This document shows, one piece after another, positions 10,913-62,870 of a stretch of DNA of 64,000 nt (the first letter of the stretch is position 1; each line of letters starts with the position of its first letter). Under the pieces are notes generated by a model. The model was not told where the DNA came from. It saw only the letters and a list, made by a program, of their open reading frames with translations, and did not search any database. A program made the position numbers and the translations under genes. The DNA is from Steroidobacteraceae bacterium (GTDB lineage: Bacteria > Pseudomonadota > Gammaproteobacteria > Steroidobacterales > Steroidobacteraceae), in the NCBI GenBank assembly GCA_036824505.1, contig DAITAA010000007.1:6677-70676 (forward strand). Direction: 5' to 3'.

Positions 10913-10913
10913 G

Positions 10914-10945: not shown

Positions 10946-10949
10946 AACA

Positions 10950-26684: not shown

Positions 26685-26699
26685 TGGCTTCTCCTCGCC

Positions 26700-37274: not shown

Positions 37275-37338
37275 GAAATTTCCCTTGCTCGTTGATTCCT
37301 GCAGCGCCGCCCTACGCCGGCGCAGCCCCAAGTCCACG

Positions 37339-38295
37339 TCACCGAACCGTCGAGCCCTCGACGGCGCTCAAAGCCGCACCGATCATTCCGCCGCGCGCGC
37401 CGAGGCGCGCGCGGCGCACGCGCACGCGTCGTGCGTATCGCCCCCAGGTGAACCTCGGAAGCGCGGCGCGAAAACTGTTCCAGTACCGACCGGGAGCCGC
37501 GCCCACGCCGCCGCCCAGGACGACCAGCGACGGGTCCAGTGCATTGACCAGGATCGCGACGTGGGCGGCGAGGTCGGTCGCGGCGGAATCGACCACGCGG
37601 CGAGCGATGCCCGATTGCGCGCGCGCTGCGCGGCAAACTTCCGCCGCGTCCCCGGCGTGATAGCCCAGGGCCTTTGCACGGCTAACCAATGCCGGTCCCG
37701 ACGCGCGGGATTCGAGTGGGGCGAAAACCGTTCTGCCATCGCTGGCCGTAGCCGCGCATGTCGGGCCGCTCGCGAACGCGATGGCGTGACCATGCGCGCC
37801 GAGATAAGGCCGGCCATCGATGAACAAGGTCGAGCTGATGCCCGTGCCGACGCCGACATAGAGGAAGTTGGGACTGCCGCGCGCCGCCCCGAGGCGCGCT
37901 TCGGCGAGCGCCGCTGCCCGCACGTCGGATTCGATGGTCACCTCGCCATAAGCAGCGAACACCCTGCGGACGCCGGCAGAACGCCACGACAGGATGGCGG
38001 CGCTCTCGATCTCGCCTCCGGGGCCGACCAGCTCGGGTACGCCGATTCCAACTTTGTGCACCGTCAATCCGGCGCGGCTGCCGGCTTCGACGACTTCGCG
38101 CGCAACCGCCGCCGCGCGTGCGAGCGCCTGGCGTGCGCCGTTCGTCGCGTCCGTGTGGATCGCGCGGACGTGCCGCAGCGACCCGGAGCGTGGAACGAAG
38201 AGGCCGGCGCGAATGCTGGTTCCGCCGACGTCGATGCCGAGCACGCACCGCTGGCGCTGACGCATCCGCGTCGAGCGGCGCGCGGCGCGGCTCAC
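37339..38295 (-). CDS. ROK family sugar kinase
   Basis: VLGIDVGGTSIRAGL, and later GVGTGI..... with ROK-like Gly-rich blocks. The GTG at 38295 overlaps the bicupin stop (GTGA); ATG 38265 is an alternative start. Confidence 0.75.
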   Translation of the reverse strand: MSRAARRSTRMRQRQRCVLGIDVGGTSIRAGLFVPRSGSLRHVRAIHTDATNGARQALARAAAVAREVVEAGSRAGLTVHKVGIGVPELVGPGGEIESAAILSWRSAGVRRVFAAYGEVTIESDVRAAALAEARLGAARGSPNFLYVGVGTGISSTLFIDGRPYLGAHGHAIAFASGPTCAATASDGRTVFAPLESRASGPALVSRAKALGYHAGDAAEVCRAARAQSGIARRVVDSAATDLAAHVAILVNALDPSLVVLGGGVGAAPGRYWNSFRAALPRFTWGRYARRVRVRRARLGARGGMIGAALSAVEGSTVR

Positions 38296-39137
38296 GGCAG
38301 GTACCTCGGCGCGACGCCGAGCAAGGCGGTAGCGGATCCGGAGAACGACAGGATTTCGTATTGCGCGGTCTCGGGAATGAACACGGCATCGCGCGGGCCG
38401 AGCTCCATCGTTGCAACCTGGGACTTCCAGTACGTGCGGATCATCAGCTCGCCTGACAGGCCAACGATCATCGCATCGCCGCCGTGCGCGGTTCTCTCGC
38501 CAGCGGCTCCCGCCGGCACGTTCAGCTCCGCAACAGTGAGATGCTCGGTGCTGACGATCAGGCCGACGGCGATTTCGCCCTCCAGCCGCAGCGAGCGCTC
38601 ACGCGCCCCGATTCGATGCAGGGTCGCAGGCGGAGCCGCGCCGACGTAATTGCCGAGTAACTCGTCGCGCTTATAGACCGGCGTTTCCAGGTATTCCTGA
38701 TTCATCGCGTAGGCACCGCTCGTGCCCTGCGATGGGGGCGGTGCGAAGAATTCAAGTATACGCAGCGGCTCGGCGCCCTGCGCTCGCACGTGGTGCCAGG
38801 TGTCCTTGCGAAAGAACAAGGATTCGCCGGCCAGGCATTCGACGACCTCTCCAGTCTGCGGATTGCAGGCGAGCATCGCACCCTGCAACACGTAGAGGAC
38901 TTCGTCCGCGGCAAACACGGTTCGGTACGCCCTCGAATGCTTGAACCAGCATCCGGGAGCCAATCTGAACTCGAGAACGTGAACCTTGTTGGTGGAAGCG
39001 TACAACCAGTCGCCCACCAGGCCGGACTGCTTGTCGCCCCAGATGTGGTGCTTGATGTCGCTGCGACGAACGAGCGTAGGAGCATCGTAGGTCGGTCGCG
39101 GCGAGGGCGCGTATCCCGTTGAAGCACTATCGGCCAA
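38292..39137 (-). CDS. Bicupin-fold protein of unknown function
   Basis: There are two cupin-like halves (..VLEFRLAPGCWF.HS.....DEVLYVLQG... and ..VAELNVPAGAAGERTAHGGDAMIVGLSGEL..). The start is uncertain: TTG 39137 (GGCGGA upstream) or ATG 39233. The 39138..39233 stretch has atypical third-position usage and contains the 10-bp repeat array. Confidence 0.55.
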   Translation of the reverse strand: MADSASTGYAPSPRPTYDAPTLVRRSDIKHHIWGDKQSGLVGDWLYASTNKVHVLEFRLAPGCWFKHSRAYRTVFAADEVLYVLQGAMLACNPQTGEVVECLAGESLFFRKDTWHHVRAQGAEPLRILEFFAPPPSQGTSGAYAMNQEYLETPVYKRDELLGNYVGAAPPATLHRIGARERSLRLEGEIAVGLIVSTEHLTVAELNVPAGAAGERTAHGGDAMIVGLSGELMIRTYWKSQVATMELGPRDAVFIPETAQYEILSFSGSATALLGVAPRYLP

Positions 39138-39215
39138 TGCCCATCCGCCTTCTTCGAGGTGGTGATTCGACGACCAGGGCTCTGGCCCGGAATATAGGCG
39201 AGCCCTCGCGCCCTT

Positions 39216-39255
39216 GCAACCAGTAGCAACCATTGGGAACCAGTCGGAACCAGGG
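39216..39255. promoter_or_regulatory. Four tandem 10-bp repeats G(C/G)AACCAnnn (candidate operator array)
   Basis: GCAACCAGTA GCAACCATTG GGAACCAGTC GGAACCAGGG are contiguous, in the bicupin/GntR divergent region. Confidence 0.4.
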
Positions 39256-39405
39256 TCGATGGCGCGGCAGTCGCGCAGGCGAGGCGACGCGGGTACAGCG
39301 GTTTACAGCGCAGTTTGGGCGCGTTGCGCCCGTATGGCGTTGCCTCGTCGCAGGACACTCGGTAATCTGCGCGGGCGGACGCAGGCGGCGATGCTGCACC
39401 GCAAG

Positions 39406-39425
39406 ACAACCAAAGGCAACCAAGG
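39406..39425. promoter_or_regulatory. Two more tandem 10-bp repeats (ACAACCAAAG GCAACCAAGG)
   Basis: Same core (C)AACCA at the same 10-bp period, ending 13 nt upstream of the GntR start codon. Confidence 0.35.
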
Positions 39426-39438
39426 TGATCGGTCGACC

Positions 39439-40212
39439 ATGACCCGGACGAGACACCGCCGTCGTCCCCGCTCGCCTCTGGCGAGGCTCAATACCACGTC
39501 CCTCTACGAAACCTGCGCCACAGCGCTCAACCGCGAAATCGAAACGGGCGCCCTGCGGCCAGGACAACGCTTGCCGTCGGAACGCTCCCTCGGCGATGCG
39601 CTCGGATTCACGCGTCTCACCGTGCGGCGCGCCTTGCAGGTGCTCGCCCAGCGCGGCCTGCTCGAGCCGGACGAACGCCGCGGCTGGCAGGTGCGCGGCG
39701 GCCAGGTCAGCGACAGCCTGTCGACGCTCATGGGCTTCACGCAGATGGCCCGGATGCGGGGGCTGGTGGCCAGCTCGCGCATCCTGTCGCTCGAATACCG
39801 CGACGCGACCTTCGACGAGTCGGAAGCATTGCGGGTGGCACCCGGCGCGCCGATCCTGGATCTCTCGCGATTGCGCCTTCTCGATGACCGGCCCACAGCG
39901 ATTGAGCGCCTGCGCATGCCGACGAGCCGCCTGCGCTGGCCGGACGGTTTCGACTTCACCGGCTCGATCTACGCCGCCCTGGAATCGCAAGGCATCGTTC
40001 CCACGATCGCGGATGCCTACGTCGACGTCGTCGATGCGACCGAAGCCGAGGCAAGTTTGTTCGGCGTCGCGACGGGACGGGGCCTCTTGCGTATGAACTG
40101 CGTGACCAACGACGCCGACGGGGTGGCCATCAGCCTCGAAACGTCCATGTACCATCCAGATCGCTATCGATTCCGCGCGATTCTGCAGAAGCGCGCCAAA
40201 CGATGGACTTGA
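39439..40212 (+). CDS. GntR family (HutC subfamily, UTRA effector domain) transcriptional regulator
   Basis: ATG at 39439 (AAGGTGA upstream). The winged HTH is ..LRPGQRLPSERSLGDALGFTRLTVRRALQVLAQRGLL.., followed by a UTRA-like C-terminal half. Confidence 0.8.
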   Translation: MTRTRHRRRPRSPLARLNTTSLYETCATALNREIETGALRPGQRLPSERSLGDALGFTRLTVRRALQVLAQRGLLEPDERRGWQVRGGQVSDSLSTLMGFTQMARMRGLVASSRILSLEYRDATFDESEALRVAPGAPILDLSRLRLLDDRPTAIERLRMPTSRLRWPDGFDFTGSIYAALESQGIVPTIADAYVDVVDATEAEASLFGVATGRGLLRMNCVTNDADGVAISLETSMYHPDRYRFRAILQKRAKRWT

Positions 40213-41564
40213 TCCCGAGAGCCCGGCGTCGCTACGCGCTGCACGGTTTGATGGCGGCGCTGGTCATCGCAGGGATCTTGGTTGGTTGCGGCTCGAACGA
40301 TCGTGACGGCGCGGTTGAGCCCGGGCGCGATGCGGCCGCAGGCGGCCGCCACGCCCTGGAGGTCTGGACGCCAGAGAGCGGAACACGCCTGCAACTGGTG
40401 CAGCGGCGCGCAGATGAGTTTTCCGCCGCGCATCCCGACGTGAAGGTCAACTTCACTATCCGCGACTTCGGCTCCTACCCCGCACAGCTCAAGCTGGCGC
40501 TCGCGTCGGACAGTGCGCCGGATGTCGTCATCGGCAACCTCGGATGGTCTCTCGACGGCCCATTGATCAAAGCCGGCCAGCTGCGCGCTCTCGACCCATG
40601 GGCGACGCGCTACGGTTGGGACAAGCGCTTTGCGGAGGTGGCGCAGCGGCAGATGCGCTTTACCGACGACGGCAAGCAATTTGGCCGCGGCTCGATTTTC
40701 GGCATCCCATACGCCGCCGACGTCATCGGCTGGTTCTACAACGTCGGCAAGCTCAAGATTCTCAATATCGGCGTCCCGGCCACTCTGGACGAGCTCGAGG
40801 CGGCCCTCGGGACCGCTCGCAGGGCGGGCGAAGTGCCGATCATGCTGGGAAACAGGCCGCAATGGCCCGGACTGCACCTTTTCTATCTTGTCAGCGGCGA
40901 TCTTGCGTCCGACCGTGAGATCAACGGCATCGTCTTCGGCGACCGATCGGTGAAGTGGACGGCCCCGAGCTTCGTCGCAAGTGCCCGCAAACTGGCGCAA
41001 TGGAATGCCAAGGGATACATCGCGGCCGGTGCCAACAGCATGTCACCGGACGATGCCCTCGCAAAATTCGTCCGCGGCACCGGCGTTTTCCTGCCGACCG
41101 GTTCCTGGAATGCCGCGGAACTCTCGGCCGCCATGGATGACAACGTCGCGTTCTTTCTGACGCCGCCGATCCGCAAGGGGGACCCGCGTCGCGCGACAGG
41201 CAGCGTCGGCTATGGCTGGCACATCACGGCAGCGAGTCGCCAGGCGGATCTCGCCGCCGAATTCATTGACTTCATGACTCAGGAAGCGTTCGCAATCCAA
41301 CTGGCGGCGAGCGGCGACATATCGCCGCTCGCAATTGGCGGCGGCCTGCCACAGGCACCCTCCCGCCTGGCCGGTGAAATCTTCGCGGCCTGGCAAAGCG
41401 TCCTTGCGAACGGCACATTGCTGCCGTATCTCGATTTTTCGGCGCCGGACGGGGCCGAAGTCCTCTATCCGACGATGCAGTCGATCATTGCGGGCCAGGA
41501 AACACCGGAGCGGGGCCTCGCCCTCATCGAGCAGTCACGCGAAAGATTCCTGGATTCGCTGTGA
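40203..41564 (+). CDS. ABC transporter extracellular solute-binding lipoprotein (family 1, CUT1 sugar type)
   Basis: 453 aa. Lipobox LVGC in ..AGILVGCGSN. The size and pattern are those of sugar SBP_bac_1 proteins. Confidence 0.75.
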   Translation: MDLIPRARRRYALHGLMAALVIAGILVGCGSNDRDGAVEPGRDAAAGGRHALEVWTPESGTRLQLVQRRADEFSAAHPDVKVNFTIRDFGSYPAQLKLALASDSAPDVVIGNLGWSLDGPLIKAGQLRALDPWATRYGWDKRFAEVAQRQMRFTDDGKQFGRGSIFGIPYAADVIGWFYNVGKLKILNIGVPATLDELEAALGTARRAGEVPIMLGNRPQWPGLHLFYLVSGDLASDREINGIVFGDRSVKWTAPSFVASARKLAQWNAKGYIAAGANSMSPDDALAKFVRGTGVFLPTGSWNAAELSAAMDDNVAFFLTPPIRKGDPRRATGSVGYGWHITAASRQADLAAEFIDFMTQEAFAIQLAASGDISPLAIGGGLPQAPSRLAGEIFAAWQSVLANGTLLPYLDFSAPDGAEVLYPTMQSIIAGQETPERGLALIEQSRERFLDSL

Positions 41565-42436
41565 AGACCAGGCGTGGCCGCGCGGCGTTGCCGTATCTCT
41601 ACCTGTTGCCCGCGTTCCTTTTCTTCGTGCCTTTCGTTCTCGTGCCGTTTGCCCACACGGTGGGCCTGTCCTTCTACGATTGGGATGGACTCACGCGGGC
41701 TGCATTCACCGGATTCGAAAATTATCGCGAGGCCTTCGCCAGCCCGCTCGTGCGGTCGGCCTTCGGCCACGCGCTCGTACTCATATTCTTCTTCGGTGTG
41801 CTTCCCGTCTTGCTGGCCCTGCCGCTTGCCGTCGGCAGCTCGCGGACGAGCGTCCCGGGCCGCAACACGCTTCGAACCCTGATCTTCCTGCCGCAAGCGA
41901 TATCCACGGTCGTGGTCGGGGTGAGCTGGGGCTGGATCCTGGCCCTGGACGGCCCGATCAATGCCGGATTGCGCGCACTGGGCCTCGATTGGGCCGCGGT
42001 CGACTGGCTCGGGAGCTTCACCTGGGCTCTGCCAAGCCTCGGTATCGTCGGCACGTGGACGCTGATCGGATTATGCGTCACCCTGTTTTTCGCGGGCCTT
42101 CAGCAGATTCCTGTCTCGCTCTACGATGCGGCGGCAGTCGATGGGGCCGGACCTTGGCGGGAATTCCTTGCCGTCACCTTGCCAGGCCTCAAGGGCCCGA
42201 TCGCGGTCGCGTTGACCGTCACCGTGATCTCCGCGTTGCGGGCATTCGATCTCATATTCGTGACGACGCGCGGCGGCCCTGGCACGGAGACCGTCGTGCC
42301 GGGGATCCTGATCTATCGGCGCGCCTTTGAAGACGGCCGGCTGGGCTCCGCGGCGGCGATTGCCGTGATACTGAGCATCGTCGTGTTTGCCGTGACCTTC
42401 CTCATCAACCGGATTGCGGACCGCAGAGCGCCGTGA
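41561..42436 (+). CDS. Carbohydrate ABC transporter permease (MalF-type)
   Basis: 291 aa with 6 TM segments. EAA-loop region ..LYDAAAVDGAGPWREFLAVTLPGL... GTGA overlap. Confidence 0.85.
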   Translation: MKTRRGRAALPYLYLLPAFLFFVPFVLVPFAHTVGLSFYDWDGLTRAAFTGFENYREAFASPLVRSAFGHALVLIFFFGVLPVLLALPLAVGSSRTSVPGRNTLRTLIFLPQAISTVVVGVSWGWILALDGPINAGLRALGLDWAAVDWLGSFTWALPSLGIVGTWTLIGLCVTLFFAGLQQIPVSLYDAAAVDGAGPWREFLAVTLPGLKGPIAVALTVTVISALRAFDLIFVTTRGGPGTETVVPGILIYRRAFEDGRLGSAAAIAVILSIVVFAVTFLINRIADRRAP

Positions 42437-43257
42437 CCGCAGCGCCGAGAACGGGGACCCTGGGCGCCGCGATCCTGATCGCGTTCGCGGCGATCACCGT
42501 ATTGCCGATCCTCGGTGTCGTGCTCCTCAGCCTGCAGCCGGAACAGACCCAGCTGTCCGGATTCGAGTTGCCGGACCGCCTGCACTTCGAAAATTACGCG
42601 CGCGCCTTCGACGTTGCGCACTTCGCGAACTACCTGCAATCGAGCCTGATCGTCAGCATCGCGGTGGTCGTGGGAACCGTCGTGGTGTCCACGTTGAGCG
42701 GCTATGCCTTCGGCACCATGCGCTTTGCCGGTGAGAACGCCCTCTTTTACCTGCTCCTGGCCGGTCTCATAATTCCTTTCGAGGCGGTCATCGTGCCGCT
42801 GTATGTCGAGTTGCGGGCCGGGCACCTCACGAACTCCTACTGGTCGGTCATCCTGCCGCTGATCGGCACGAATTCCGCGTTCGGCACGTTCTGGATGCGC
42901 GCGTATTTTCGCGCCGTGCCGCGCCAGCTGATGGAAGCGGCGGCGCTGGACGGCGCGGGTTCGTTGCGCATTCTCTGGAAGGTCCTGTTGCCCGGGGCCC
43001 GCCCGGCGTTGCTGACGCTGGTGGTGCTCGTGTTCATGTGGTCCTGGAACGAGTTTCTGCTTCCGCTCGTTATGTTGTCGCGCGAGGATCTGCGCACGGC
43101 TCCGCTCGGCCTCGCTTTCTTCGCTGGCCGCTACACGACCGACCGCGTCGGCATGGCCGCCGCAGCCGTGATGGTCGCGCTGCCGGTGGTGGTATTGTTC
43201 ATCGCCACGCATCGGCGCTTCGTGCACGGCATGTGGGTGGGAGCATTGAAGCAATGA
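42433..43257 (+). CDS. Carbohydrate ABC transporter permease (MalG-type)
   Basis: 274 aa with 6 TM segments. EAA loop ..LMEAAALDGAGSLRILWKVLLPG... GTGA overlap. Confidence 0.85.
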   Translation: MTAAPRTGTLGAAILIAFAAITVLPILGVVLLSLQPEQTQLSGFELPDRLHFENYARAFDVAHFANYLQSSLIVSIAVVVGTVVVSTLSGYAFGTMRFAGENALFYLLLAGLIIPFEAVIVPLYVELRAGHLTNSYWSVILPLIGTNSAFGTFWMRAYFRAVPRQLMEAAALDGAGSLRILWKVLLPGARPALLTLVVLVFMWSWNEFLLPLVMLSREDLRTAPLGLAFFAGRYTTDRVGMAAAAVMVALPVVVLFIATHRRFVHGMWVGALKQ

Positions 43258-44018
43258 CGGCTCAAGGCCTGCCAGCACCTCTTCGGCTGACGGATGCGCA
43301 GCTGGCATCGTTCCAGCGCGACGGGTTCCTTTGCATCGACGCGCTCACCGACGACGCCGAGGTCGAAGTCCTGCTCGGGCTATACGACGAGTTGTTTCAG
43401 CGGGACGGCGGCTTCGATGCTGGCGATCGCATCGAATTGAACGCAGACGTGGCTCGTGCGCCGCTGCCGCAGATCGTCAACCCCGAGCGTTATGCGCCAC
43501 GACTTATTCAGGGACTGGCGTATCGCAATGCGCGAGAGATCGCGCGACAGTTGCTGGGATCCGGCTGCGTGCCGACCGGCAATCACGCCATCCTGAAGCC
43601 GCCTCGAATCGGCGGCGCCACGCCCTGGCACCAGGACGAAGCGTACTGGGACCCCCGATACGCTCATCGTGCCGTGAGCATCTGGCTTGCGCTGCAACCC
43701 GCGACGCGCGAGAACGGCTGCATGCAGTTCCTCCCCGGGAGTCATCGCGGACCCGTGTTGCCGCACGAGCTGATTTCCGCCGATTCGCATGGACTGCGTT
43801 TGAGTAGGATGCCGCCCGATGCTGCGGAAACCACTTGCGAACTGCCGGCGGCCGGGGCGACCATCCACGATGGACGCACGCTCCATGGGGCCGGGCCCAA
43901 TTTGTCCGGGCGGCCGCGCCGCGCACTCGTGTTCGGGTTCGGCCTCCCTCCCGTCCGGCTCGACACGCCCAATCACTATCCCTGGCAGAGGCCGGAATGG
44001 TTGAGCGGCATCCACTGA
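43254..44018 (+). CDS. Phytanoyl-CoA dioxygenase (PhyH) family Fe(II)/2OG oxygenase, second copy
   Basis: ATG at 43254 overlaps the permease stop (ATGA). ..QRDGFLCI.., PWHQDEAYW (HxD), ATRENGCMQFLPGSH, IHDGRTLHGA. The upstream 216 nt of the listed ORF were rejected. Confidence 0.8.
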   Translation: MTAQGLPAPLRLTDAQLASFQRDGFLCIDALTDDAEVEVLLGLYDELFQRDGGFDAGDRIELNADVARAPLPQIVNPERYAPRLIQGLAYRNAREIARQLLGSGCVPTGNHAILKPPRIGGATPWHQDEAYWDPRYAHRAVSIWLALQPATRENGCMQFLPGSHRGPVLPHELISADSHGLRLSRMPPDAAETTCELPAAGATIHDGRTLHGAGPNLSGRPRRALVFGFGLPPVRLDTPNHYPWQRPEWLSGIH

Positions 44019-44052
44019 ATCGAAGGCCTCTCCGTCAAGGACACTGTCACAC

Positions 44053-45156
44053 ATGCTTCGACTCGGAGTACTTGGACTCGGTAGCGTCTTTCAGGGGCCA
44101 TACGGCAAATTGATTCGCCAGCTCGAGCAAAGCGGCCAGGCTCGACTGACCGCCGTGTTCGACATCGACCGCGACAAGACGGCGGCGGTCGCGAGCCTGT
44201 ATCCATCGATCGCGACGCCCGCCACTGCGGCGGCGCTCATCGCGCGTGACGATGTCGATGCGATTCTCGTGCTGACCAGCATGAATGAGCACGCCGAACT
44301 GGCGCAGGCCGGCCTCCAGGCGGGCAAACACGTCCTGGTCGAAAAGCCGATGGCGACCAGCATCGCCGCGGCGCACGATCTGCTGAGGCTCAGCAAGGAC
44401 GCGAAGGGTCTCCTGGTCTGCGCGCCGCACATCGTGCTGTCGCCGACCTACCGGGCCATGCATGCCGAGGTGGTCTCGGGAAAAATTGGCAAGATCCTGC
44501 TGGCTCGCGCACGTTACGGATGGGCCGGTCCCTGGTGGGGGCAATGGTTCTACCGCCCGGGCGGGGGAGCCCTGTTCGATCTTGGCGTCTACAACCTGAC
44601 GAGCCTCTGCGGATTCATGGGATCCGTGCGACGCGTGTGCGCAATGGTCGGCACGGCGATCCCGCAGCGCATGGCCGAAGGCGTCAAGATCGCCGTCCAG
44701 GCGGATGACAATGCGCAGGTGCTGCTCGATTTCGGGGACAGCCGATTTGCCTGTATCACCACCGGCTTCACGATGCAGAAGTACCGCAGCCCTGCCATCG
44801 AGCTCTACGGCACGGAAGGCGTCCTGCAATTGCTCGGCGACGATTGGGCGCCCCAGGGTTTTGAGCGATGGACCAAGGAACGCGGGGTGTGGGAAATAAA
44901 TGAGGAAAGCGAGCCGCAGTGGCCGTGGACTGCAGGCTTGCGCCACCTCGTCGAGTGCGTTGCCGCCGGAACACGGCCTGTCAGCCAGCCTGAGCACGCC
45001 TTGCACTGTCTGGAGGTCATGCTGGCGGCTCAAGCCTCGGCTCGAGAAGGACGATTCGTGTCGATCGAATCCGGTTTTCCGGCGCTCGACTACCAGCACA
45101 TGCCGGCGGGCGGGGCGGACAGTCATCGGCGCCGGCATGATCCGAGAACTGCGTAG
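44053..45156 (+). CDS. Gfo/Idh/MocA family NAD(P)-dependent oxidoreductase
   Basis: 367 aa. Rossmann N-terminus LGVLGLGSV and the family motif HVLVEKPMA. Confidence 0.8.
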   Translation: MLRLGVLGLGSVFQGPYGKLIRQLEQSGQARLTAVFDIDRDKTAAVASLYPSIATPATAAALIARDDVDAILVLTSMNEHAELAQAGLQAGKHVLVEKPMATSIAAAHDLLRLSKDAKGLLVCAPHIVLSPTYRAMHAEVVSGKIGKILLARARYGWAGPWWGQWFYRPGGGALFDLGVYNLTSLCGFMGSVRRVCAMVGTAIPQRMAEGVKIAVQADDNAQVLLDFGDSRFACITTGFTMQKYRSPAIELYGTEGVLQLLGDDWAPQGFERWTKERGVWEINEESEPQWPWTAGLRHLVECVAAGTRPVSQPEHALHCLEVMLAAQASAREGRFVSIESGFPALDYQHMPAGGADSHRRRHDPRTA

Positions 45157-45171
45157 GGATCGAGCACAACG

Positions 45172-46272
45172 ATGGCATCGATCTCGATCGAAGGCGCCAG
45201 CCGCACTTTTGCCGACGGTACCCGGGCTCTGGATGACGTGAACCTTGCCATCGGAGATGGCGAATTTCTGGTGCTCGTGGGGCCTTCCGGTTGTGGCAAG
45301 TCGACGCTGCTGCGCGCTGTAGCGGGCCTGGAACAGCTCGACCGCGGTCGTGTGCTCATCGGTGAGGCCGACGTCACCGGCAAGCCCGCGGGCGAGCGCG
45401 ATATCGCGATGGTGTTCCAGAATTACGCGCTGTACCCGCAGATGTCGGTTCGCGACAACATTGAATTCGGCCTCAAGTCACGCCGCATGAGCGAGCGCGA
45501 GCGGCGCGAGCGCGTTGCCGATATCGCCGGTTTGCTCGGACTCGGATCGCTGCTGTCGCGGCGCCCGGCCGAACTATCCGGTGGTCAGCTGCAGCGCGTC
45601 GCCATGGGCCGCGCCATCGCGCGACGGCCGCAGGCGTTCCTGATGGACGAGCCACTCTCCAATCTGGATGCGCAATTGCGCACGTCCATGCGCGCCGAAC
45701 TGGCCAGGATGCGCGAGCGGCTCGGGGTCACGACCCTCTACGTCACGCACGATCAGATCGAAGCCATGACGCTGGGCGAGCGGGTGGCCGTAATGTGCGA
45801 AGGCACGATCCAGCAATGCGACACTCCGCGCAGACTCTACGATCAGCCCCGCAACGTATTCGTGGCGACATTCATGGGTTCGCCGCCGATGAACCTGTTG
45901 AAGGCGAATTTCACCGCGGGAGGCATTCGCTTCGGCCGGTTCGAGCTGCCACTGCAAGCGGGCGTCAGGATACCGAAAGCGATCCCATCGACATTGCTCA
46001 TGGGTCTGCGGCCCGGCGATCTGGCACTCGATCGCAGTGCGCCCGGCCATTGGCCGCGAATCGAGGTCGTGCCGCATGCCGTGGAGGAATACGGCCACCA
46101 GCGGATCGTGCGCTTTCGCTGCGATGCCCCGCCCGAAGCAGGCGCTGAGCTTGACGTCAGCGCGCTGTTGAGCGGCCGGGATGTCATCGCAGTCGGCGAG
46201 CGGCTAAGTCTTGGCGTCGACACGGCGCATCTGCATTTCTTCGATCCGGAAAGCGGTAATGCCCTGGCCTGA
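45172..46272 (+). CDS. Sugar ABC transporter ATP-binding protein (MalK/UgpC/MsiK type)
   Basis: 366 aa. Walker A GPSGCGKST, signature LSGGQLQRV, Walker B FLMDEPLSNLD, and a C-terminal TOBE-like domain. Confidence 0.88.
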   Translation: MASISIEGASRTFADGTRALDDVNLAIGDGEFLVLVGPSGCGKSTLLRAVAGLEQLDRGRVLIGEADVTGKPAGERDIAMVFQNYALYPQMSVRDNIEFGLKSRRMSERERRERVADIAGLLGLGSLLSRRPAELSGGQLQRVAMGRAIARRPQAFLMDEPLSNLDAQLRTSMRAELARMRERLGVTTLYVTHDQIEAMTLGERVAVMCEGTIQQCDTPRRLYDQPRNVFVATFMGSPPMNLLKANFTAGGIRFGRFELPLQAGVRIPKAIPSTLLMGLRPGDLALDRSAPGHWPRIEVVPHAVEEYGHQRIVRFRCDAPPEAGAELDVSALLSGRDVIAVGERLSLGVDTAHLHFFDPESGNALA

Positions 46273-46328
46273 ATGCAGGGCTTTCACGTGATGAGCGCGG
46301 TTCACCAACTGGAACGGGTGAGACTCAA

Positions 46329-48674
46329 ATGATGCGAAAACTGTGCACCACAATTGGCGTTTCTGTCTTGCTGATGTGCCACGCCCTGGAGGCACAGGCT
46401 GGCACGCCGACCTCAGCGACTGATGCCCGCGCCGGTATCTATAACTCCAGTCTCGACGCTCGGGTGGAAACCCTGCTCGGCAAGATGACGCTGGAGGAGA
46501 AGGTTGGCCAGCTGGTCCAGTATTCAGCGGGCCAACCGACGGGCCCTGGCACCGGCCGCACGGACTACGAGGACATGATCGCCAAAGGGCAGATCGGCGC
46601 CCTGTTCAACATCTCGACGGCAAAAGAAACCAACGCGTACCAGCGAATTGCGGTCGAGAAATCCCGCCTCCGGATTCCGATCATTTTCGGACTGGATGTC
46701 ATTCACGGTTTCCGCACGGTATTTCCGGTTCCGCTGGCTCTCGCATCAACCTGGGATCCGCCCCTGGTGGAGCAGGCGGCGAGGGTAGCGGCGCGCGAAG
46801 CCTCGGCAACCGGAATTCGCTGGACGTTTTCTCCCATGGTCGACATTGCCCGCGACGCTCGCTGGGGCCGCATCACGGAAGGTGCCGGAGAAGATCCATT
46901 CCTTGGTTCAGAGATGGCGGCTGCTTACGTTCGTGGCTATCAAGGAACGCGCCTGGACGCACCAGATAGCATCGCCGCCTGCGCCAAGCACTTCGTCGGA
47001 TACGGAGCGGCCGAGGGCGGACGCGAGTACAACACCACGGAGATCTCCGAGCACACGTTGCGCCAGATCTATCTGCCTCCTTTTCATGCAGCCGTAGACG
47101 CCGGAGCGGCAACCATTATGGCTGCTTTCAACTCGATCAACGGCGTGCCGGCATCCGCCAATCCGCTCACCCTGCGGCAGGTTCTGCGCGAGGAGTGGGG
47201 ATTTCGCGGCGTCGTCGACAGTGACTGGGAATCGGTGAGCGAACTGATTCAGCACGGGATCGCCAACGATCGCGCTACGGCGGCCCGCAAGGGTTTTCTG
47301 GCTGGCGTAGACATGGACATGGCCAGCAGCGTTTATCACGATCACCTTGCGTCTTTGGTGAGTTCCGGTCAGGTTTCACAAGAACGTCTCGACGAGTCGG
47401 TGCGGAACGTCTTGCGATTGAAGTTCGCACTCGGCCTTTTCGAGCACCCCTATGCCGATGAAACACGCGAGGCTGAAGCCATGCTGCGGCCGGAGAGCGT
47501 CACTCTGGCCCAACGGGCGGCTGAGCGCTCCTTTGTATTGCTGAAGAATTCCCCCGGACCGGATAACGCGCTGATACTCCCGCTGTCGAACCGCGTTCAA
47601 CGCATCGCCCTGATCGGGCCGCTTGCCGACGATCTGCCGAGTGCGTTGGGATCCTGGGCCGGACTGGGTCGCGGCGAGGACGTGATCTCTTTTCACGCTG
47701 CACTCGCCAAACACGTGGGAGAGCAGAATCTGATTCACCTCAGGGGCGTCGGCATCAAGGGCGGGTCTGACGAAGACCTGGCCGCCGCTGTGGCTGCTTC
47801 CGGGAAAGCGGACGTCGTCATCCTGGCACTGGGGGAGAGTGGCGGGGAAATGACGGGCGAGGCCACGTCGCGGGCATATCTCGGACTGCCGGGGCGTCAA
47901 CAGGAGCTGCTCGAGAAGATCGTCGCCACAGGCAAGCCGGTGGTTCTCATTCTGTTCAGCGGACGCCCCCTGACATTGCCCTGGGCGTTTGAGCACGTTC
48001 CGGCGGTGCTGGCCGCGTGGCTCCCCGGCATCCAGGCGGGACCGGCTCTCGTGCGCACGCTGTATGGCGAATCCATTCCCACCGGAAAGCTGGTGGTGAG
48101 CTGGCCTCGCAGCGTAGGACAGGAGCCGCTCTACTACAACGCGCTCAATACGGGACGCCCGGCGGACAAGACTGATCTCACGAATCCTCCCGGCGGAAGC
48201 GACGACACCTACGTTTCGCGTTACATCGACGAGCGAAACGATCCGCAATTTCCATTTGGCCACGGCCTTTCCTACACCACCTTTCGCTACGGCCCAACCG
48301 AGATCAGCGGGAGTCAGCTCAAAGCCTCCGAACTTTCGGCGGGCCTCCACGACAGTACAGATCGGACCAAGGCTGTGTTGACAGCCAGTGTTGACGTTAC
48401 GAACACAGGCTCACGCCCGGGCGAAGAGGTTGTTCAACTTTATGTCCGGCTCAACGGAACCAGTGTTGCTCAGCCGGTTCGCGCCCTGAAGGGTTTTCAG
48501 CGAATCTCGCTGGCTCCTGGTGAAACGAAGAAAGTAGCATTTGCCCTGGTGCCCGATGCTTTCGCGCTGTGGAATGACCGCAATCAGTGGGTCGTCGAGC
48601 CGGAGAAAGTGACCGTGTGGATCAGTCCTGATTCGGCGCATGGTTCGCCCGCCACTGTCCAGATTCTGCCGTAG
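46329..48674 (+). CDS. GH3 beta-glucosidase (BglX-like), secreted; compositionally atypical
   Basis: 781 aa with a signal peptide. MTLEEKVGQL, GFRGVVDSDW (nucleophile block) and FGHGLSYTTF. Hand-counted GC is about 53-58% on three 60-nt lines, against about 72-77% in the flanking genes. Confidence 0.85.
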   Translation: MMRKLCTTIGVSVLLMCHALEAQAGTPTSATDARAGIYNSSLDARVETLLGKMTLEEKVGQLVQYSAGQPTGPGTGRTDYEDMIAKGQIGALFNISTAKETNAYQRIAVEKSRLRIPIIFGLDVIHGFRTVFPVPLALASTWDPPLVEQAARVAAREASATGIRWTFSPMVDIARDARWGRITEGAGEDPFLGSEMAAAYVRGYQGTRLDAPDSIAACAKHFVGYGAAEGGREYNTTEISEHTLRQIYLPPFHAAVDAGAATIMAAFNSINGVPASANPLTLRQVLREEWGFRGVVDSDWESVSELIQHGIANDRATAARKGFLAGVDMDMASSVYHDHLASLVSSGQVSQERLDESVRNVLRLKFALGLFEHPYADETREAEAMLRPESVTLAQRAAERSFVLLKNSPGPDNALILPLSNRVQRIALIGPLADDLPSALGSWAGLGRGEDVISFHAALAKHVGEQNLIHLRGVGIKGGSDEDLAAAVAASGKADVVILALGESGGEMTGEATSRAYLGLPGRQQELLEKIVATGKPVVLILFSGRPLTLPWAFEHVPAVLAAWLPGIQAGPALVRTLYGESIPTGKLVVSWPRSVGQEPLYYNALNTGRPADKTDLTNPPGGSDDTYVSRYIDERNDPQFPFGHGLSYTTFRYGPTEISGSQLKASELSAGLHDSTDRTKAVLTASVDVTNTGSRPGEEVVQLYVRLNGTSVAQPVRALKGFQRISLAPGETKKVAFALVPDAFALWNDRNQWVVEPEKVTVWISPDSAHGSPATVQILP

Positions 48675-48725: not shown

Positions 48726-50420
48726 TCAGGGCACCCTGGCGTCTGGCAGTCTTGCGAAGAACGCGCCGAACGCCGGAATCTCAACGGCGCCCGGCGACGG
48801 CCTGCAGCGAGCGAAGCCGTGGCCGCTCAGTTCCTTTGGATCGAGGCCGGCCAGATCCACCTTGCAGGCGCTCGAAGAGAAGTTGAAACAGGCCAGCATC
48901 GACTGGCCCTCATGCTCGCGGATGAAGCAAAGCGTGTCGGCGGGCGACTCGATGAACCGGATGCCGCCGTGGCGCAGCACCGGATGCTGCCGCCGCCAGC
49001 GCAGGAACGTGCGGTAAGAACTCAGGACCGATTCCGGGTCGGCCTGCTGCCGGCTCACGGCGCTGGCGCGGTGCTGCGCGGGTATCGGCAGCCAGGGTTT
49101 CGCGCTCGAGAAGCCGCAGGCATCGCCCTGCGCGTTCCAGGGAAGCGGCGTGCGGCAGCCATCGCGCCCCTTGAACGCGGGCCAGAAAGCGAGCCCGTAT
49201 GGGTCCTGCAGGACTTCCCTTGGCAGATCGGCTTCCTGCAAGCCGAGCTCCTCGCCCTGATAGCTGCACACGGTGCCCTTCAAAGAAAGAAGGAAGGCAT
49301 TGAGCAGCTTCGCTCGTGGCTCCGATGCATTGCGGCCCCACCAGCGGGTGGCGACGCGCGCCACGTCGTGATTGCCGATGGCCCAGCAGGGCCAGCAGTC
49401 CACTGCCCTGGACTCGAGCATCTCGATCACGTTGCGGATGTGCGAGGTCGAGAATGTATCGACCAGCAACTCGAAGTTGTAGGCCATGTGCAGGCGCTTG
49501 TTGCCGCTCGTGTACTGGACGGTCGTGGCGAGCGGGTCCTCGCTGGACACTTCCCCGAGCGTGATCGCCGGAGGATAGCGGTCGATCAGACGGCGCAGCG
49601 CTTCGAGGAAGTCCAGAGCCTCTGGCCGCGTGTTGTCGTAAACATGGAACTGGTAGGCATAGGGGTTATCGGCCGTATAGCCGCGACCCTTGCGTTGCGA
49701 CGCGGGCTTCGCCGGGTTGTCCCGCAGCAGCGGGTCGTGGAAGCAGAAGTTGATCGCGTCGAGTCTCAGCCCGTGCACGCCGCGCTTCAGCCAGAACTCC
49801 ACTTCCTCCAGCATCTGCGCGACGACTGCGGGACTGTGGTAGTTCAGGTCCGGCTGGCTGACCAGGAAGTTGTGCAGGTAGTACTGCGCGCGCCGCGGTT
49901 CCCACTGCCAAGCCGAGCCGCCGAAAATCGACAACCAGTTACTGGGCGGGGAGCCGTCGGGCTTGGGCTCGGCCCAGACGTACCAGTCGGACTTGTCGTT
50001 GGTACGGTCCTGCCGGCTGGCCTGGAACCACGGATGCTGGTCCGATGTGTGGCTCAGCACCTGATCGATGATGATCCTGATTCCGCGCCGGCGGGCCTGG
50101 CTGACGAGTTGATCGAAGTCGTCGAGCGTTCCGAAGATCGGGTCGACCTGACGGTAGTCGCTGACGTCGTAGCCGAAATCCTTCATCGGCGACACGAAGA
50201 ACGGAGTGATCCAGACGGCATCGACGCCGAGCCCCGCGAGGTAGTCCAGGTGCTCGATCACGCCGCGCAGGTCGCCGGTCCCGTCGCCGCTGCTGTCGGC
50301 GAAGCTGCGCAGGTAGATCTGGTAGATGACGGCACCGCGCCACCAGTCCTTGTCCGGTTGCGCCGAAACGAGCGCGGACACATCGCCCGGCCTGTTTTCT
50401 GCGTCGTCGAAATTCAGCAT
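48726..50420 (-). CDS. GH13 alpha-glucosidase / oligo-1,6-glucosidase type (cytoplasmic)
   Basis: ATG at 50420 (MLNFDD..DWWRGAVIYQIYLRSFADS.GDGTGDL.G). GH13 regions DQVLSHTS, GLRLDAINF, GEVSSE, GNHDVAR. The 48 N-terminal codons of the listed ORF were rejected. Confidence 0.85.
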   Translation of the reverse strand: MLNFDDAENRPGDVSALVSAQPDKDWWRGAVIYQIYLRSFADSSGDGTGDLRGVIEHLDYLAGLGVDAVWITPFFVSPMKDFGYDVSDYRQVDPIFGTLDDFDQLVSQARRRGIRIIIDQVLSHTSDQHPWFQASRQDRTNDKSDWYVWAEPKPDGSPPSNWLSIFGGSAWQWEPRRAQYYLHNFLVSQPDLNYHSPAVVAQMLEEVEFWLKRGVHGLRLDAINFCFHDPLLRDNPAKPASQRKGRGYTADNPYAYQFHVYDNTRPEALDFLEALRRLIDRYPPAITLGEVSSEDPLATTVQYTSGNKRLHMAYNFELLVDTFSTSHIRNVIEMLESRAVDCWPCWAIGNHDVARVATRWWGRNASEPRAKLLNAFLLSLKGTVCSYQGEELGLQEADLPREVLQDPYGLAFWPAFKGRDGCRTPLPWNAQGDACGFSSAKPWLPIPAQHRASAVSRQQADPESVLSSYRTFLRWRRQHPVLRHGGIRFIESPADTLCFIREHEGQSMLACFNFSSSACKVDLAGLDPKELSGHGFARCRPSPGAVEIPAFGAFFARLPDARVP

Positions 50421-50511
50421 GCCTGGCCCCGTTCCGCCTCGCGCATTGGCCGCAGCGCGTCGGCGGGCGGCCAGGCACAATTGTCGGCCGAATCGCGGGC
50501 GTACCGACCAC

Positions 50512-50525
50512 TGAATACGATTGCA
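50512..50525. promoter_or_regulatory. Candidate LacI-type operator TGAATACGATTGCA (central CG, weaker symmetry)
   Basis: It lies in the divergent region between the GH13 alpha-glucosidase and the MFS/amylase operon. It matches the 14754 site at 12/14 positions. Confidence 0.3.
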
Positions 50526-50576
50526 TCGCGTTGTGCGGCTCGCCGGCCGGCGTGAGACTCGCAAGCAGGGGGGAAC

Positions 50577-52082
50577 ATGCGCGAAAAACCGGGGCTGAGT
50601 TTCTGGCAGATCTGGAACATGAGTTTCGGGTTCCTAGGGATCCAGTTCGGATTCGCGCTTCAAAACGCCAACGTGAGCCGTATCTTCCAGTCGCTCGGAG
50701 CGTCGGTCGACGCCCTGCCTATCCTCTGGCTGGCCGCGCCGGCCACGGGGCTCCTGGTGCAACCGATCATCGGGTACATGAGCGACCGGACTTGGGGCCG
50801 GCTCGGCAGACGCAGGCCCTATTTCCTGGTTGGTGCCATCCTCGCGACGCTGGCGCTAATAGTGATGCCCAACAGCCCCTGGCTTTGGGTTGCTGCGGGC
50901 ACCCTGTGGATCCTCGATGCCTCCATCAACATCACCATGGAACCGTTCCGCGCGCTGGTCGGCGACATGCTGCCCGACCGGCAGCGAACCTTCGGCTTCT
51001 CCTTGCAGAGTCTGTTCATCGGCGTCGGGGCAGTGGTCGCTTCGGCGCTGCCCTGGATCCTCGCCAACTGGGCCGGGGTCAGCAATGTCGCCGTCGACGG
51101 CGGTATTCCGGACTCCGTCAAATGGGCTTTCTATCTGGGTGCTTTCGCGTTCATCGGCGCAGTGCTGTGGACCATTGCCTCCACGAAAGAGTATTCGCCG
51201 GCGGAGCTCGCCGGTTTCAGCTCCACACGCGAAGCGGCGGTCGCGGCGGCGACGACCGTGGCTCGCGGCACGAAGCGCTACCTGGCTTCGGGGGCGGCCT
51301 GGATCCTCGCGGGCGGTGCTTTCAGCGTTGCCGTCGCAATACTCGATTGGGAAAAGCAGCTTTACGTGCTCGGCATCGGCAGCCTGGTTTTCGGCGTGCT
51401 GCAGCTCGCCACTGCATGGCTCCAGTCCAGGGGCCGAACCGGGGGCGCGCTCTACGGCATCGTCAACGACCTGTTCGACATGCCCCGGGCCATGCGCCAG
51501 CTCGCAGTGGTCCAGTTCCTGTCGTGGTTCGGGCTGTTCGCGATGTGGATCTATACGACCTCCGCGGTGACCAGCCGCTTCTACGGCACCACGGACACTG
51601 CATCGGCAGCCTTCAACGAAGGCGCCAACTGGGTCGGCGTGCTGTTTGCCGCTTACAATGGCTTTGCCGCGCTGGCTGCAATCATGATTCCGTTCATCGC
51701 CGCGCGGATCGGGCGCAGGCGCGCCCATCTACTCAGTCTCTCGCTCGGCGGGGCCGGCCTGATCGCATTCCTGTTGATCGACGATCCGCACATGCTGCTG
51801 CTGGCAATGGTCGGGGTCGGGATCGCCTGGGCCTCGATCCTCTCGCTGCCCTACGCGATGCTGTCGGGTGCCGTGCCGCCGGCGAAAATGGGCGTGTACA
51901 TGGGCATCTTCAACTTCTTCATCGTCATCCCGCAGATCATGGCAGCCAGCGTTCTCGGGGTAATGGTGCGGGTCCTGTTCGGCGGTCAGAGCGTCTATGC
52001 GCTCGCGACTGGCGGCGTGTTGATGGTATTCGCTGGGCTGGCGACGCTGCGGGTGGATGATCACGAGGATCCAAAGCGATGA
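50577..52082 (+). CDS. MFS transporter, SLC45/GPH-like (candidate maltose/maltodextrin inner-membrane symporter)
   Basis: 501 aa with 12 TM segments. The N-terminal block ..[26 protein letters not shown]......[31 protein letters not shown].. is typical of SLC45-like sugar/H+ symporters. Confidence 0.75.
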
Positions 52083-57613: not shown

Positions 57614-57618
57614 AGCGG

Positions 57619-59793: not shown

Positions 59794-59868
59794 GTTGACG
59801 CCTGTTACCGAATGACGAAAGGCGGGATCATGGCCGCCCCGGTCACGGTACTATACTTTCTTGTACAT

Positions 59869-62867: not shown

Positions 62868-62870
62868 TTC

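Follow-up and report, generated by a model that had tools for sequence, protein, structure and literature searches.

The genome of a Steroidobacteraceae bacterium, described as a soil organism, contains an operon in which two redox enzymes are encoded within a sugar importer gene set. The operon lies in a stretch of 64,000 nucleotides (contig DAITAA010000007.1 of assembly GCA_036824505.1), hereafter the window, whose numbering gives all coordinates below except those tied to a named locus. The G+C content of the window is 61-70%, and its proteins have their closest relatives in Steroidobacteraceae, a gammaproteobacterial family. The two enzymes are a PhyH-family Fe(II)/2-oxoglutarate oxygenase (PhyH) and a Gfo/Idh/MocA oxidoreductase (Gfo), and their genes stand between the permease and ATPase genes of an ATP-binding cassette (ABC) transporter. 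We find that they belong to a five-gene core, completed by a bicupin, a ROK-family sugar kinase and a GntR/UTRA regulator, which is conserved across three phyla, and that PhyH alternates near-exclusively with aminosugar-phosphate deaminase genes in sister loci. We tentatively read the locus as one regulon by which a beta-linked oligosaccharide or glycoside is taken up and then broken down in the cytoplasm; this substrate would bear a non-hydroxyl ring substituent and would most likely contain a hexosamine (glucosamine-type) residue.

The PhyH operon

Eight close-packed open reading frames (ORFs) on the plus strand form one operon at 39439-48674, the identity of each being backed by Pfam and NCBIfam models; a minus-strand gene group diverges from it. 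The genes, among them a glycoside hydrolase (GH) of family 3, are:

39439-40212 (+): GntR/HutC-type regulator with a UTRA effector domain, first gene of the operon (Pfam GntR 1.9e-16, UTRA 1.4e-28)
40203-41564 (+): CUT1 solute-binding lipoprotein (SBP; SBP_bac_1 1.1e-24, lipobox LVGC)
41561-42436 (+): ABC permease 1 (BPD_transp_1)
42433-43257 (+): ABC permease 2 (BPD_transp_1)
43254-44018 (+): PhyH-family Fe(II)/2-oxoglutarate oxygenase, EvdO2-like subfamily (PF05721)
44053-45156 (+): Gfo/Idh/MocA oxidoreductase (three Pfam domains)
45172-46272 (+): MalK/UgpC-type ABC ATPase (ABC_tran and OB_MalK; UgpC subfamily, 404 bits)
46329-48674 (+): secreted (periplasmic) GH3 beta-glucosidase of the BglX type (GH3 N- and C-terminal domains, Fn3-like domain, signal peptide)
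38292-39137 (-): bicupin of 281 aa (Cupin_2), divergent from the operon
37339-38295 (-): ROK-family sugar kinase (ROK 1.1e-33)
34173-37337 (-): TonB-dependent outer-membrane receptor with a CarboxypepD_reg domain, directly after ROK

The ORFs of GntR and SBP overlap by 10 nt, those of SBP and permease 1 and of the two permeases by 4 nt each, and the stop codon of permease 2 and the start codon of PhyH overlap as ATGA. Gaps of 34 nt (PhyH-Gfo), 15 nt (Gfo-ATPase) and 56 nt (ATPase-GH3) separate the remaining genes, and terminator-like sites are no more frequent than in shuffled sequence. On the minus strand, the ROK start and the bicupin stop overlap by 4 nt. An alternative, more upstream start of the GntR ORF is the TTG at 39214, which would take it across the repeat-bearing promoter described below; homologues and the Pfam match favour the ATG at 39439.

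An initial annotation, made by a model from the sequence alone, had read the same gene order from GntR to GH3 and the ATGA coupling of PhyH to permease 2, and coordinates and profile matches bear out both. It had also held that the redox genes are co-expressed with uptake, and this agrees with our analysis, the redox and transporter genes being in one operon and therefore co-expressed. The extent that it gave the locus, 39439-48674, is correct for the plus-strand genes but omits the divergent bicupin, ROK and TonB receptor genes (34173-39137, -), which are part of the conserved unit: in all the Steroidobacteraceae loci L002-L008 a TonB receptor gene follows ROK, and is itself followed by a GH3 or a GH144-like gene, so that the unit in the window spans at least 34173-48674.

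The transporter has the features of a CUT1 importer, namely an SBP_bac_1 protein, two MalF/MalG-type permeases and a MalK-type ATPase with a C-terminal OB/TOBE domain. The nearest solved relatives of the SBP are the chitin-oligosaccharide binders NagB1 and NagB2, at a weak E of 3e-19, and xylo-oligosaccharide binders are also among the best matches; all are too distant for its substrate to be called. The GH3 enzyme clears the NCBIfam BglX equivalog cut-off (685.9 against 666).

A five-gene core conserved in three phyla

A PhyH profile run against a one-genome-per-species collection returned at least 589 related loci. The best 80 were taken with 10-kb flanks and compared by tblastn with the window proteins, followed by clustering of the neighbours. 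In about 30 of these best 80, distributed over three phyla, PhyH and Gfo genes are adjacent and accompanied by the same bicupin, ROK and GntR genes. The recurrence of the set in three phyla shows that the arrangement is not due to chance, and the conserved core is PhyH, Gfo, bicupin, ROK and GntR/UTRA. The initial annotation had seen in the locus a recurring module of an importer plus PhyH; this does not hold, as the importer varies and more distant PhyH orthologues most often lie beside an AraC regulator.

The module is found in Steroidobacteraceae (L001-L008), in Actinomycetota (Asanoa, Nocardioides, Microlunatus, Streptosporangiaceae, Ilumatobacteraceae and Solirubrobacteraceae) and in Chloroflexota (L042, L055, L068 and L078). 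Among the 22 module loci outside Steroidobacteraceae, Gfo is present in 19, mostly directly downstream of PhyH and with 58-66% identity to the window protein, and the bicupin accompanies PhyH in 18. Two loci are minimal and contiguous and hold no glycosidase gene, L082 (GntR / SBP-permease-permease-PhyH-Gfo-bicupin-ROK) and L078 (GntR-Gfo-bicupin-ROK-PhyH-SBP-permease-permease).

Around the core, importer and glycosidase are exchangeable. Most loci have a CUT1 importer; in L018, L022 and L034 it is an SBP_bac_5 system of the Opp/Dpp type, accompanied by a LacI regulator. Outside the Steroidobacteraceae and Solirubrobacteraceae loci, the MalK-type ATPase is not found at its window position. As the glycosidase, Steroidobacteraceae have a periplasmic GH3, seven actinobacterial loci a cytoplasmic GH1 that lies beside Gfo and clears the beta-glucosidase equivalog cut-off, and five PhyH loci a GH35-like enzyme. 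A gene for a GH144-like putative beta-1,2-glucanase directly follows the TonB receptor gene in L004 and L008.

Two variants of the surroundings were also seen. An AraC-type gene stands between permease 2 and PhyH in ten actinobacterial loci (L009-L012, L014, L016, L017, L019, L023 and L024, at about 9040-9930 in most). In the Caldilineaceae loci L063, L069 and L073 (about 6800-12700), PhyH lies between the SBP and permease genes of a CUT1 operon and is flanked by sulfatases with an N-sulphoglucosamine sulphohydrolase C-terminal domain; Gfo and bicupin are absent there.

PhyH alternates with aminosugar-phosphate deaminase genes

Ten bicupin homologues (49-68% identical) on long contigs were picked blind to context. 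PhyH is absent from all ten loci; a regulator gene is present, usually together with ROK and Gfo genes. An aminosugar-6-phosphate deaminase/isomerase gene occurs in six of these ten PhyH-less loci against one of 30 PhyH loci (Fisher p = 3e-4). The six genes are:

L084 (PhyH-less): NagB-like
L086 (PhyH-less): GlmS-isomerase-like SIS
L167 (PhyH-less): AgaI, clearing the equivalog cut-off
L168 (PhyH-less): AgaS-family gene with an AgaZ equivalog
L169 (PhyH-less): NagB-II-like SIS, beside GH4, a BadF/G kinase and an ABC set of the csnEFGHK type (PMC5635096)
L170 (PhyH-less): SIS

The 30 PhyH loci were scanned with phmmer in all six reading frames. Only L055 among them has a deaminase gene (NagB-like), and it also holds GH4; the six-frame scan found no aminosugar-6-phosphate deaminase/isomerase gene anywhere in the 64-kb window. 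The alternation is thus near-exclusive. The Gfo proteins of L084 and L169 are 57-62% identical to that of the window and represent the same orthologue. Because these orthologues also occur in PhyH-less loci, Gfo and the bicupin act independently of PhyH.

A shared regulator and an apparent mosaic

The operon is divergently transcribed from the bicupin gene, and the region between them holds two blocks of a short repeat:

39215-39254 (no strand assigned): four 10-bp-phased direct repeats RSAACCA in the divergent promoter region, a candidate operator
39405-39424 (no strand assigned): second pair of the same repeat, ACAACCAAAGGCAACCA, just before the GntR start codon

Two to four repeats of the first block are kept in each of L002-L006 and L008, and at least one repeat of the second, usually both, in the six Steroidobacteraceae loci examined. 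The repeats also have a counterpart in loci of the SIS type, where TGGTY triplets phased at 10 bp lie at the GntR-SIS junction of L086 (about 5420-5450), before the SIS gene of L170 (about 1140-1175) and before the bicupin gene of L171 (8839-8866). We take the RSAACCA/TGGTY half-site to resemble the TGGTCT half of DasR/NagR-type operators.

The proteins tell a similar story. Compared with the SIS-type loci L086, L170 and L171, the window GntR is 57-73%, the bicupin 64-66% and ROK 45-56% identical (for GntR, 69-73% with the regulators of L086 and L170), whereas for the actinobacterial counterparts of the same three proteins the values fall to 33-47%. The reverse holds for the SBP-permease-PhyH-Gfo block, with 43-66% identity to actinobacterial loci. 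As GntR, bicupin, ROK and the repeats match SIS-type loci and the SBP-permease-PhyH-Gfo block is actinobacterial in its affinities, the PhyH cassette appears to occupy the place of SIS, a major facilitator superfamily (MFS) transporter and HAD. The same regulator, acting on this candidate operator, would therefore control an SIS+MFS+HAD version elsewhere and an ABC+PhyH+Gfo version here.

The oxygenase and its relatives

The PhyH protein matches PF05721 at 119.3 bits (cut-off 22) over profile positions 1-213 of 213. Residues H126, D128, H211 and R222, with about 70 further positions, are invariant in 16 homologues, and these four residues align with EvdO2. By motif analogy with EctD and PhyH, we take H211 to belong to the HxD...H triad and R222 to be the distal 2-oxoglutarate arginine, and the HxD...H/Arg site is thus intact. 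The best solved relative is EvdO2 of everninomicin biosynthesis (4xab, E 1.4e-50), followed by EvdMO1 (6ec3) and AviO1 (4xaa); these orthosomycin oxygenases are its only close relatives of solved structure, and KanJ, EctD and human PhyH are far weaker matches. In a neighbour-joining tree, the window PhyH clusters with Ilumatobacteraceae and other actinobacteria, and EvdO2 splits off at the base on a long branch, outside the module clade, with 41-46% identity to proteins from throughout the family. The EvdO2 family is believed to oxidise sugar carbons beside oxygen (PMC13374393), and we propose that the window PhyH is a sugar C-H hydroxylase or an oxidative deaminase.

A profile search of 1.84 billion representatives (clusters at 50% identity) retrieved 402 PhyH proteins at E<=1e-30. 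Only two of them exceed 400 bits, and the module-bearing clade is therefore narrow within a broad subfamily. Armatimonadota, Planctomycetota, Verrucomicrobiota and further phyla have orthologues with 43-50% identity, in scattered contexts; the commonest neighbour of these orthologues is an AraC regulator (12 of about 50 loci). Two subfamily members, P0252 and P0341, are fused to other domains, with about 240 aa added at the N-terminus and, at the C-terminus, about 300 aa that look like a methyltransferase and are reminiscent of EvdMO1. A third protein, P0063 (441 aa), looked like a PhyH-Gfo fusion and was considered as Rosetta-stone evidence; it is a frameshifted read-through, and we rejected it as an artefact.

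The partner enzymes

Gfo has an EKP motif and an Asp at the end of beta-2, as judged from its sequence, and this residue suggests that the enzyme is NAD(H)-dependent. Its solved relatives are varied sugar and inositol dehydrogenases and keto-reductases (E 1e-22 to 1e-13), which give no specific assignment; inositol and L-glucose dehydrogenases come first and 1,5-anhydro-D-fructose reductase lower (2glx, E 1.3e-15). Against the curated models for levoglucosan dehydrogenase and the BT_2158/2159 3-dehydrogenases it scores 29.5-50 bits, with cut-offs of 650-750. Gfo and the bicupin are translationally coupled in L082, L084 and L169. ROK is glucokinase-like (Thermus glucokinase 3vov, E 7e-28).

The bicupin, whose length of 281 aa was judged from homologues, matches no sequence in the PDB and no NCBIfam model, nor any phosphomannose isomerase or lyxose isomerase model of Pfam or NCBIfam. 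A confident AlphaFold2 model (predicted local distance difference test score 91) shows two beta-barrels, and its matches in Foldseek were all generic bicupins (oxalate decarboxylase, quercetinase, ureidoglycine aminohydrolase), with 10-15% identity. The protein is probably metal-dependent, to judge from the His, Asp and Glu residues that are conserved in its N-terminal barrel. We also considered a flavonoid glycoside as the substrate, with the bicupin as a quercetinase, and rejected it: the likeness is at the level of the fold only and there are no aromatic-catabolic neighbours.

Proposed oxidative removal of a ring substituent

In the route that we favour, the TonB receptor and periplasmic GH3 enzymes would deliver and trim the substrate, and the lipoprotein SBP and ABC permeases would import it. 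PhyH would then use O2 and 2-oxoglutarate to hydroxylate the substituent-bearing ring C-H, most likely at C2-NH2, and the carbinolamine would collapse to a keto-sugar and ammonia, as KanJ does at the 2'-amino group of kanamycin B. From this keto-sugar Gfo, with NAD(H), and the bicupin would make an ordinary hexose or hexoside, and the hexose would then be phosphorylated by ROK. PhyH would in this way stand in for the kinase-then-deaminase (SIS/NagB) exit of the sister loci. That PhyH strips a C2 substituent oxidatively, most likely the amino group of a hexosamine, and that Gfo, bicupin and ROK funnel the keto-sugar to hexose phosphate is a proposal to which we give somewhat under an even chance; in it we infer what the substrate is, at which carbon it is attacked, and in which order and roles Gfo and bicupin act, whereas gene content, operon structure, the intact oxygenase site, the conservation of the five core genes across phyla and the near-exclusive alternation are observed directly.

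Several observations hint at a hexosamine: (i), GH4, BadF/G kinase and ABC importer genes lie beside Gfo-bicupin in L169 and in one further place, and GH4 with a NagB-like gene in the PhyH locus L055, (ii), a GH35 related to exo-beta-D-glucosaminidase is present in five PhyH loci and, (iii), sulfamidase-like sulfatases flank PhyH in Caldilineaceae. Replacement of NH2 by OH at the glycoside level would give a beta-glucoside, which fits the GH1 beta-glucosidases and the glucokinase-like ROK.

A number of points nevertheless weigh against this route. The likeness of PhyH to KanJ is weak (E 5e-5), and the Asp at beta-2 suggests NAD for Gfo, whereas KanK uses NADPH. Three glycosidase signals point instead to neutral beta-1,2-glucosides: the periplasmic, BglX-like nature of the window GH3, the GH144-like gene behind the TonB receptor gene of L004 and L008, and the GH35-like enzyme, for which a beta-1,2-glucosyltransferase is about as good a match as a glucosaminidase. 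The locus has neither a deacetylase nor a chitosanase gene. L055 carries both PhyH and a NagB-like gene, and the alternation is based on ten PhyH-less loci and on PhyH loci that are phylogenetically non-independent. Finally, the role of Gfo and bicupin is not simply to reduce the product of PhyH, as PhyH-less loci hold them, and the two are unexplained in either version of the module.

The same glycosidase signals underlie the strongest competitor, which we consider unlikely and yet worth keeping in view: the substrate would be a neutral beta-glucoside, either a beta-1,2-gluco-oligosaccharide of the sophorose type or another O-substituted glucoside, and PhyH would hydroxylate the O-bearing ring carbon or the anomeric C-H, the latter having been proposed for relatives that form orthoesters. 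Collapse of the hemiketal would release a keto-sugar (e.g. glucosone) and glucose, Gfo and bicupin would reduce or isomerise the former and ROK would phosphorylate the products. EvdO2/AviO1/EvdMO1-type relatives are indeed thought to abstract hydrogen from sugar carbons beside oxygen (PMC13374393), the GH3 clears the BglX cut-off, a GH144-like gene (PF10091) lies in the window at 28055-30403 as well as after the TonB receptor gene in L004 and L008, and over residues 26-598 the GH35-like neighbour aligns with 7vkw, a beta-1,2-glucosyltransferase. Seven loci have a true GH1 beta-glucosidase, and GH1 and GH3 sophorosidases are known (PMC12369401). However, bond hydrolases are already present, leaving a cleavage that consumes O2 and 2-oxoglutarate without obvious advantage; the characterised sophoro-oligosaccharide cluster of Streptomyces griseus has no PhyH, Gfo or bicupin; and the deaminase genes of the PhyH-less sister loci and the shared regulator and operator are left unexplained. 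Attack at C2 would yield the same 2-keto-sugar from a 2-amino or a 2-O-glycosylated sugar, and amine removal and neutral-glucoside cleavage would therefore share one mechanism.

Three further explanations have less support. Salvage of an anhydro- or deoxy-sugar, which seems rather improbable to us, would have PhyH hydroxylate a C-H beside the ring or bridge ether oxygen, converting 1,5-anhydro-D-mannitol or -glucitol at C1 to mannose or glucose, or levoglucosan at C6 to 6-oxo-glucose. Gfo would then be a 1,5-anhydrofructose-reductase-like or a 6-oxo-glucose reductase, ROK a hexokinase and the bicupin a cupin-type (phospho)mannose isomerase. All four enzymes would thus have a role without any glycosidase, as in the glycosidase-free L078 and L082; Gfo is moderately similar to 1,5-anhydro-D-fructose reductase (2glx), the Joint Genome Institute name of the bicupin is 'mannose-6-phosphate isomerase-like', and the locus adjoins glycogen/starch genes in the window and glgB in L017 and L019. 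Oxygenation of 1,5-anhydromannitol at C-1 has reportedly been described in Sinorhizobium morelense. An oxygenase together with a 6-oxo-glucose reductase in an ABC cluster is known for sulfoquinovose (PMC8795539). This scheme, however, explains neither the beta-glycosidases of most loci nor the aminosugar-deaminase genes of the sister loci; Gfo finds its best PDB matches in inositol and L-glucose dehydrogenases and, with Asp at beta-2, would hardly share the NADPH preference of the reductase, the bicupin matches none of the isomerase models named above, and our literature search found no support for it. The chances of the initial annotation's own scheme are slender: Gfo would make a 3-keto-glycoside and PhyH would act on it, to which we add that the bicupin might replace the missing lyase/hydratase. 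Gfo/Idh/MocA enzymes do start such routes (DgpA and levoglucosan-dehydrogenase-type matches), the Gfo-bicupin coupling in L082, L084 and L169 would suit a dehydrogenase with an eliminase or tautomerase, and the Asp at beta-2 suits an NAD+-dependent dehydrogenase. But neither the window locus nor the compact operons encode a xylose-isomerase-like TIM barrel as lyase/hydratase, a 2-oxoglutarate oxygenase is chemically unneeded after 3-oxidation, the curated 3-dehydrogenase models score 33 against 650 and 29.5 against 750 bits, and the same Gfo accompanies the bicupin in PhyH-less loci. We give hardly any credence to PhyH being a passenger that acts on a non-carbohydrate (amino acid, ectoine-like solute, lipid or protein) and sits in the operon by chance. 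Homologues are automatically named 'ectoine hydroxylase-related' or 'L-proline 4-hydroxylase', and the distant orthologues in Armatimonadota and Planctomycetota have variable neighbours; against this stand the overlap of the PhyH start with the permease stop, the same position beside the same four partners in three phyla, a score of 49.7 bits with the ectoine hydroxylase model (cut-off 336) and the oligosaccharide substrates of the nearest solved relatives. PhyH is carbohydrate-linked: these relatives act on oligosaccharides and its gene is linked to ABC sugar importers in three phyla; what was found is thus the opposite of a non-carbohydrate clade without transporter linkage, the outcome on which the initial annotation would have given up its case.

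It is tempting to speculate more widely, if with added caution, that the EvdO2-like PhyH proteins, a subfamily of some 400 clusters at 50% identity, are catabolic sugar-ring C-H hydroxylases, that the enzyme of this module removes a C2 amino group or a beta-1,2-linked sugar to give a 2-keto-sugar, and that the subfamily was also the ancestral stock of the orthoester-forming enzymes of orthosomycin pathways. If so, primary carbohydrate catabolism would include a route that bypasses phosphorylation-dependent deaminases or hydrolases, and mainstream bacterial sugar catabolism would gain an O2- and 2-oxoglutarate-dependent step. A widespread, unannotated PhyH subfamily (402 representatives, at least 589 loci) and an equally unannotated bicupin family would be given a function, orthosomycin antibiotic-tailoring oxygenases an evolutionary source, and the kinase-plus-deaminase and oxygenase exits would prove swappable under one regulator. 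The idea lends itself to direct testing, since the module is found in cultivated strains (Asanoa iriomotensis NBRC 100142, Nocardioides iriomotensis NBRC 105384 and Microlunatus parietis DSM 22083).

The second PhyH and the surroundings of the module

The window encodes another PhyH protein:

25845-26699 (-): second PhyH oxygenase, of another subfamily, outside the module

The initial annotation had called it a paralogue of the first. It is present as described and shares the motifs WHQD..YW and ATRENGC(L/M)Q..(R/P)GSH, but the two proteins are 27% identical, belong to different subfamilies and have different best PDB relatives, which for the second are unnamed 'phytanoyl-CoA dioxygenases', leucine hydroxylase and ectoine hydroxylases. 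In the neighbour-joining tree it is the outgroup, at 21% identity. Its gene lies directly downstream of an MFS Sugar_tr gene (26700-28064, -) and ahead of a GH31 gene (22775-25324, -), and we considered a recurring MFS+PhyH module on this basis. We surveyed 80 related metagenome loci (62-81% identity) and reject it: an MFS gene is directly adjacent in three of the 80 and within a few kb in about nine. Recurrent neighbours of the second PhyH are xylose-isomerase-like TIM barrels (9 loci), an unknown protein of 288 aa (8 loci) and three kinds of Gfo/Idh/MocA proteins (14 loci). It looks like part of another sugar-oxidising set, sugar-linked yet separate, and what recurs for both oxygenases is PhyH with Gfo/Idh/MocA, not an importer with PhyH.

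Downstream, the module adjoins a glycogen/starch gene set (48726-63998: GH13, MFS, LacI, phosphorylase, GlgB, GlgC-like, GH57 and GH77), and a glgB gene also adjoins it in two Solirubrobacteraceae loci (L017, 11952-14141; L019, 13224-15440). This neighbourhood may be a coincidence or may reflect a tie to alpha-glucan-derived sugars. Upstream, a gene for a TPR and sulfotransferase (Sulfotransfer_3) protein (30307-32181, -) stands amid glycoside hydrolase and TonB receptor genes, an odd presence in a degradative locus, and a gene of the fatty-acid-hydroxylase family, a di-iron membrane oxygenase (20242-21489, -), adjoins a GH16 glucanase gene and adds a third oxygenase type to this carbohydrate island.

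Comparison with known systems

The orthosomycin oxygenases EvdO2, AviO1 and EvdMO1 share with the window PhyH their subfamily, an identical iron motif (WHQDEAY) and sugar substrates. They are proposed to form orthoester or methylenedioxy bridges on a heptasaccharide, and the true substrate of EvdO2 is still unknown (PMC13374393). Their genes, however, lie in antibiotic biosynthetic clusters, whereas the window PhyH belongs to a catabolic import operon with a kinase; in the window and the related loci examined, the neighbours are ABC importer, kinase, glycosidase and regulator genes, without the glycosyltransferases, sugar methyltransferases and polyketide moiety of an orthosomycin cluster.

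Chemically, the pair KanJ/KanK offers the model for our favoured route. KanJ is a PhyH-family Fe/2-oxoglutarate dioxygenase that converts a 2-amino-2-deoxy-glucoside to a 2-oxo sugar, from which the nicotinamide-dependent reductase KanK makes the 2-hydroxyl (PMC5533434). In the window, a PhyH dioxygenase is encoded next to a nicotinamide-dependent oxidoreductase, and the adjacency is conserved. But KanJ/KanK are biosynthetic and the window locus is catabolic, KanK uses NADPH and the window Gfo looks NAD-dependent, and the window PhyH is not a KanJ orthologue, the match covering residues 123-236 only.

The Streptomyces operon csnR-csnEFGHK for chitosan oligosaccharides and archaeal glucosamine catabolism by GlmA/GlmD combine CUT1 import of glucosamine oligomers with an intracellular glycosidase, a kinase and deamination (PMC5635096; bioRxiv 10.1101/2023.09.20.558697), and a GlmA-like GH35 lies beside PhyH in five of our loci. 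The description of the csn operon lists no PhyH, Gfo or bicupin (PMC5635096), whereas the window has no GH4, BadF/G kinase or deaminase. With the 3-keto-glycoside and levoglucosan pathways the locus shares a Gfo/Idh/MocA enzyme within a sugar ABC cluster; unlike them, it has a 2-oxoglutarate oxygenase and no TIM-barrel lyase/hydratase, no AP_endonuc_2 domain being found among the genes scanned at 20242-63998.

The closest catabolic architecture is that of the sulfoquinovose monooxygenase (sulfo-SMO) cluster of Agrobacterium tumefaciens. Here an ABC importer, whose SBP is of the CUT1 type, is joined by a glycosidase, by an oxygenase that takes off a non-hydroxyl substituent and leaves an oxo-sugar, and by a reductase that regenerates glucose (PMC8795539). 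It differs in its enzymes, an SsuD-like flavin-dependent oxygenase with a flavin reductase, an aldo-keto reductase and a GH31 sulfoquinovosidase, none of which is found in the window locus. We considered sulfoquinovose itself as the substrate and rejected it: the glycosidases are of the beta type, the locus has no GH31 or SsuD-/TauD-type desulfonating oxygenase, and the only GH31 found lies 18 kb off, beside the second PhyH. The sulfo-SMO cluster and KanJ/KanK nonetheless provide precedents where the initial annotation knew of no pathway with an oxygenase in such a set of roles. An oxygenase with an oxidoreductase in a sugar ABC operon is thus of an already known kind. Our literature search found no paper describing a PhyH-Gfo-bicupin-ROK-GntR cluster, and what is new here are the families of enzymes involved, the conservation of a core of five genes and an apparent exchange with deaminase genes.

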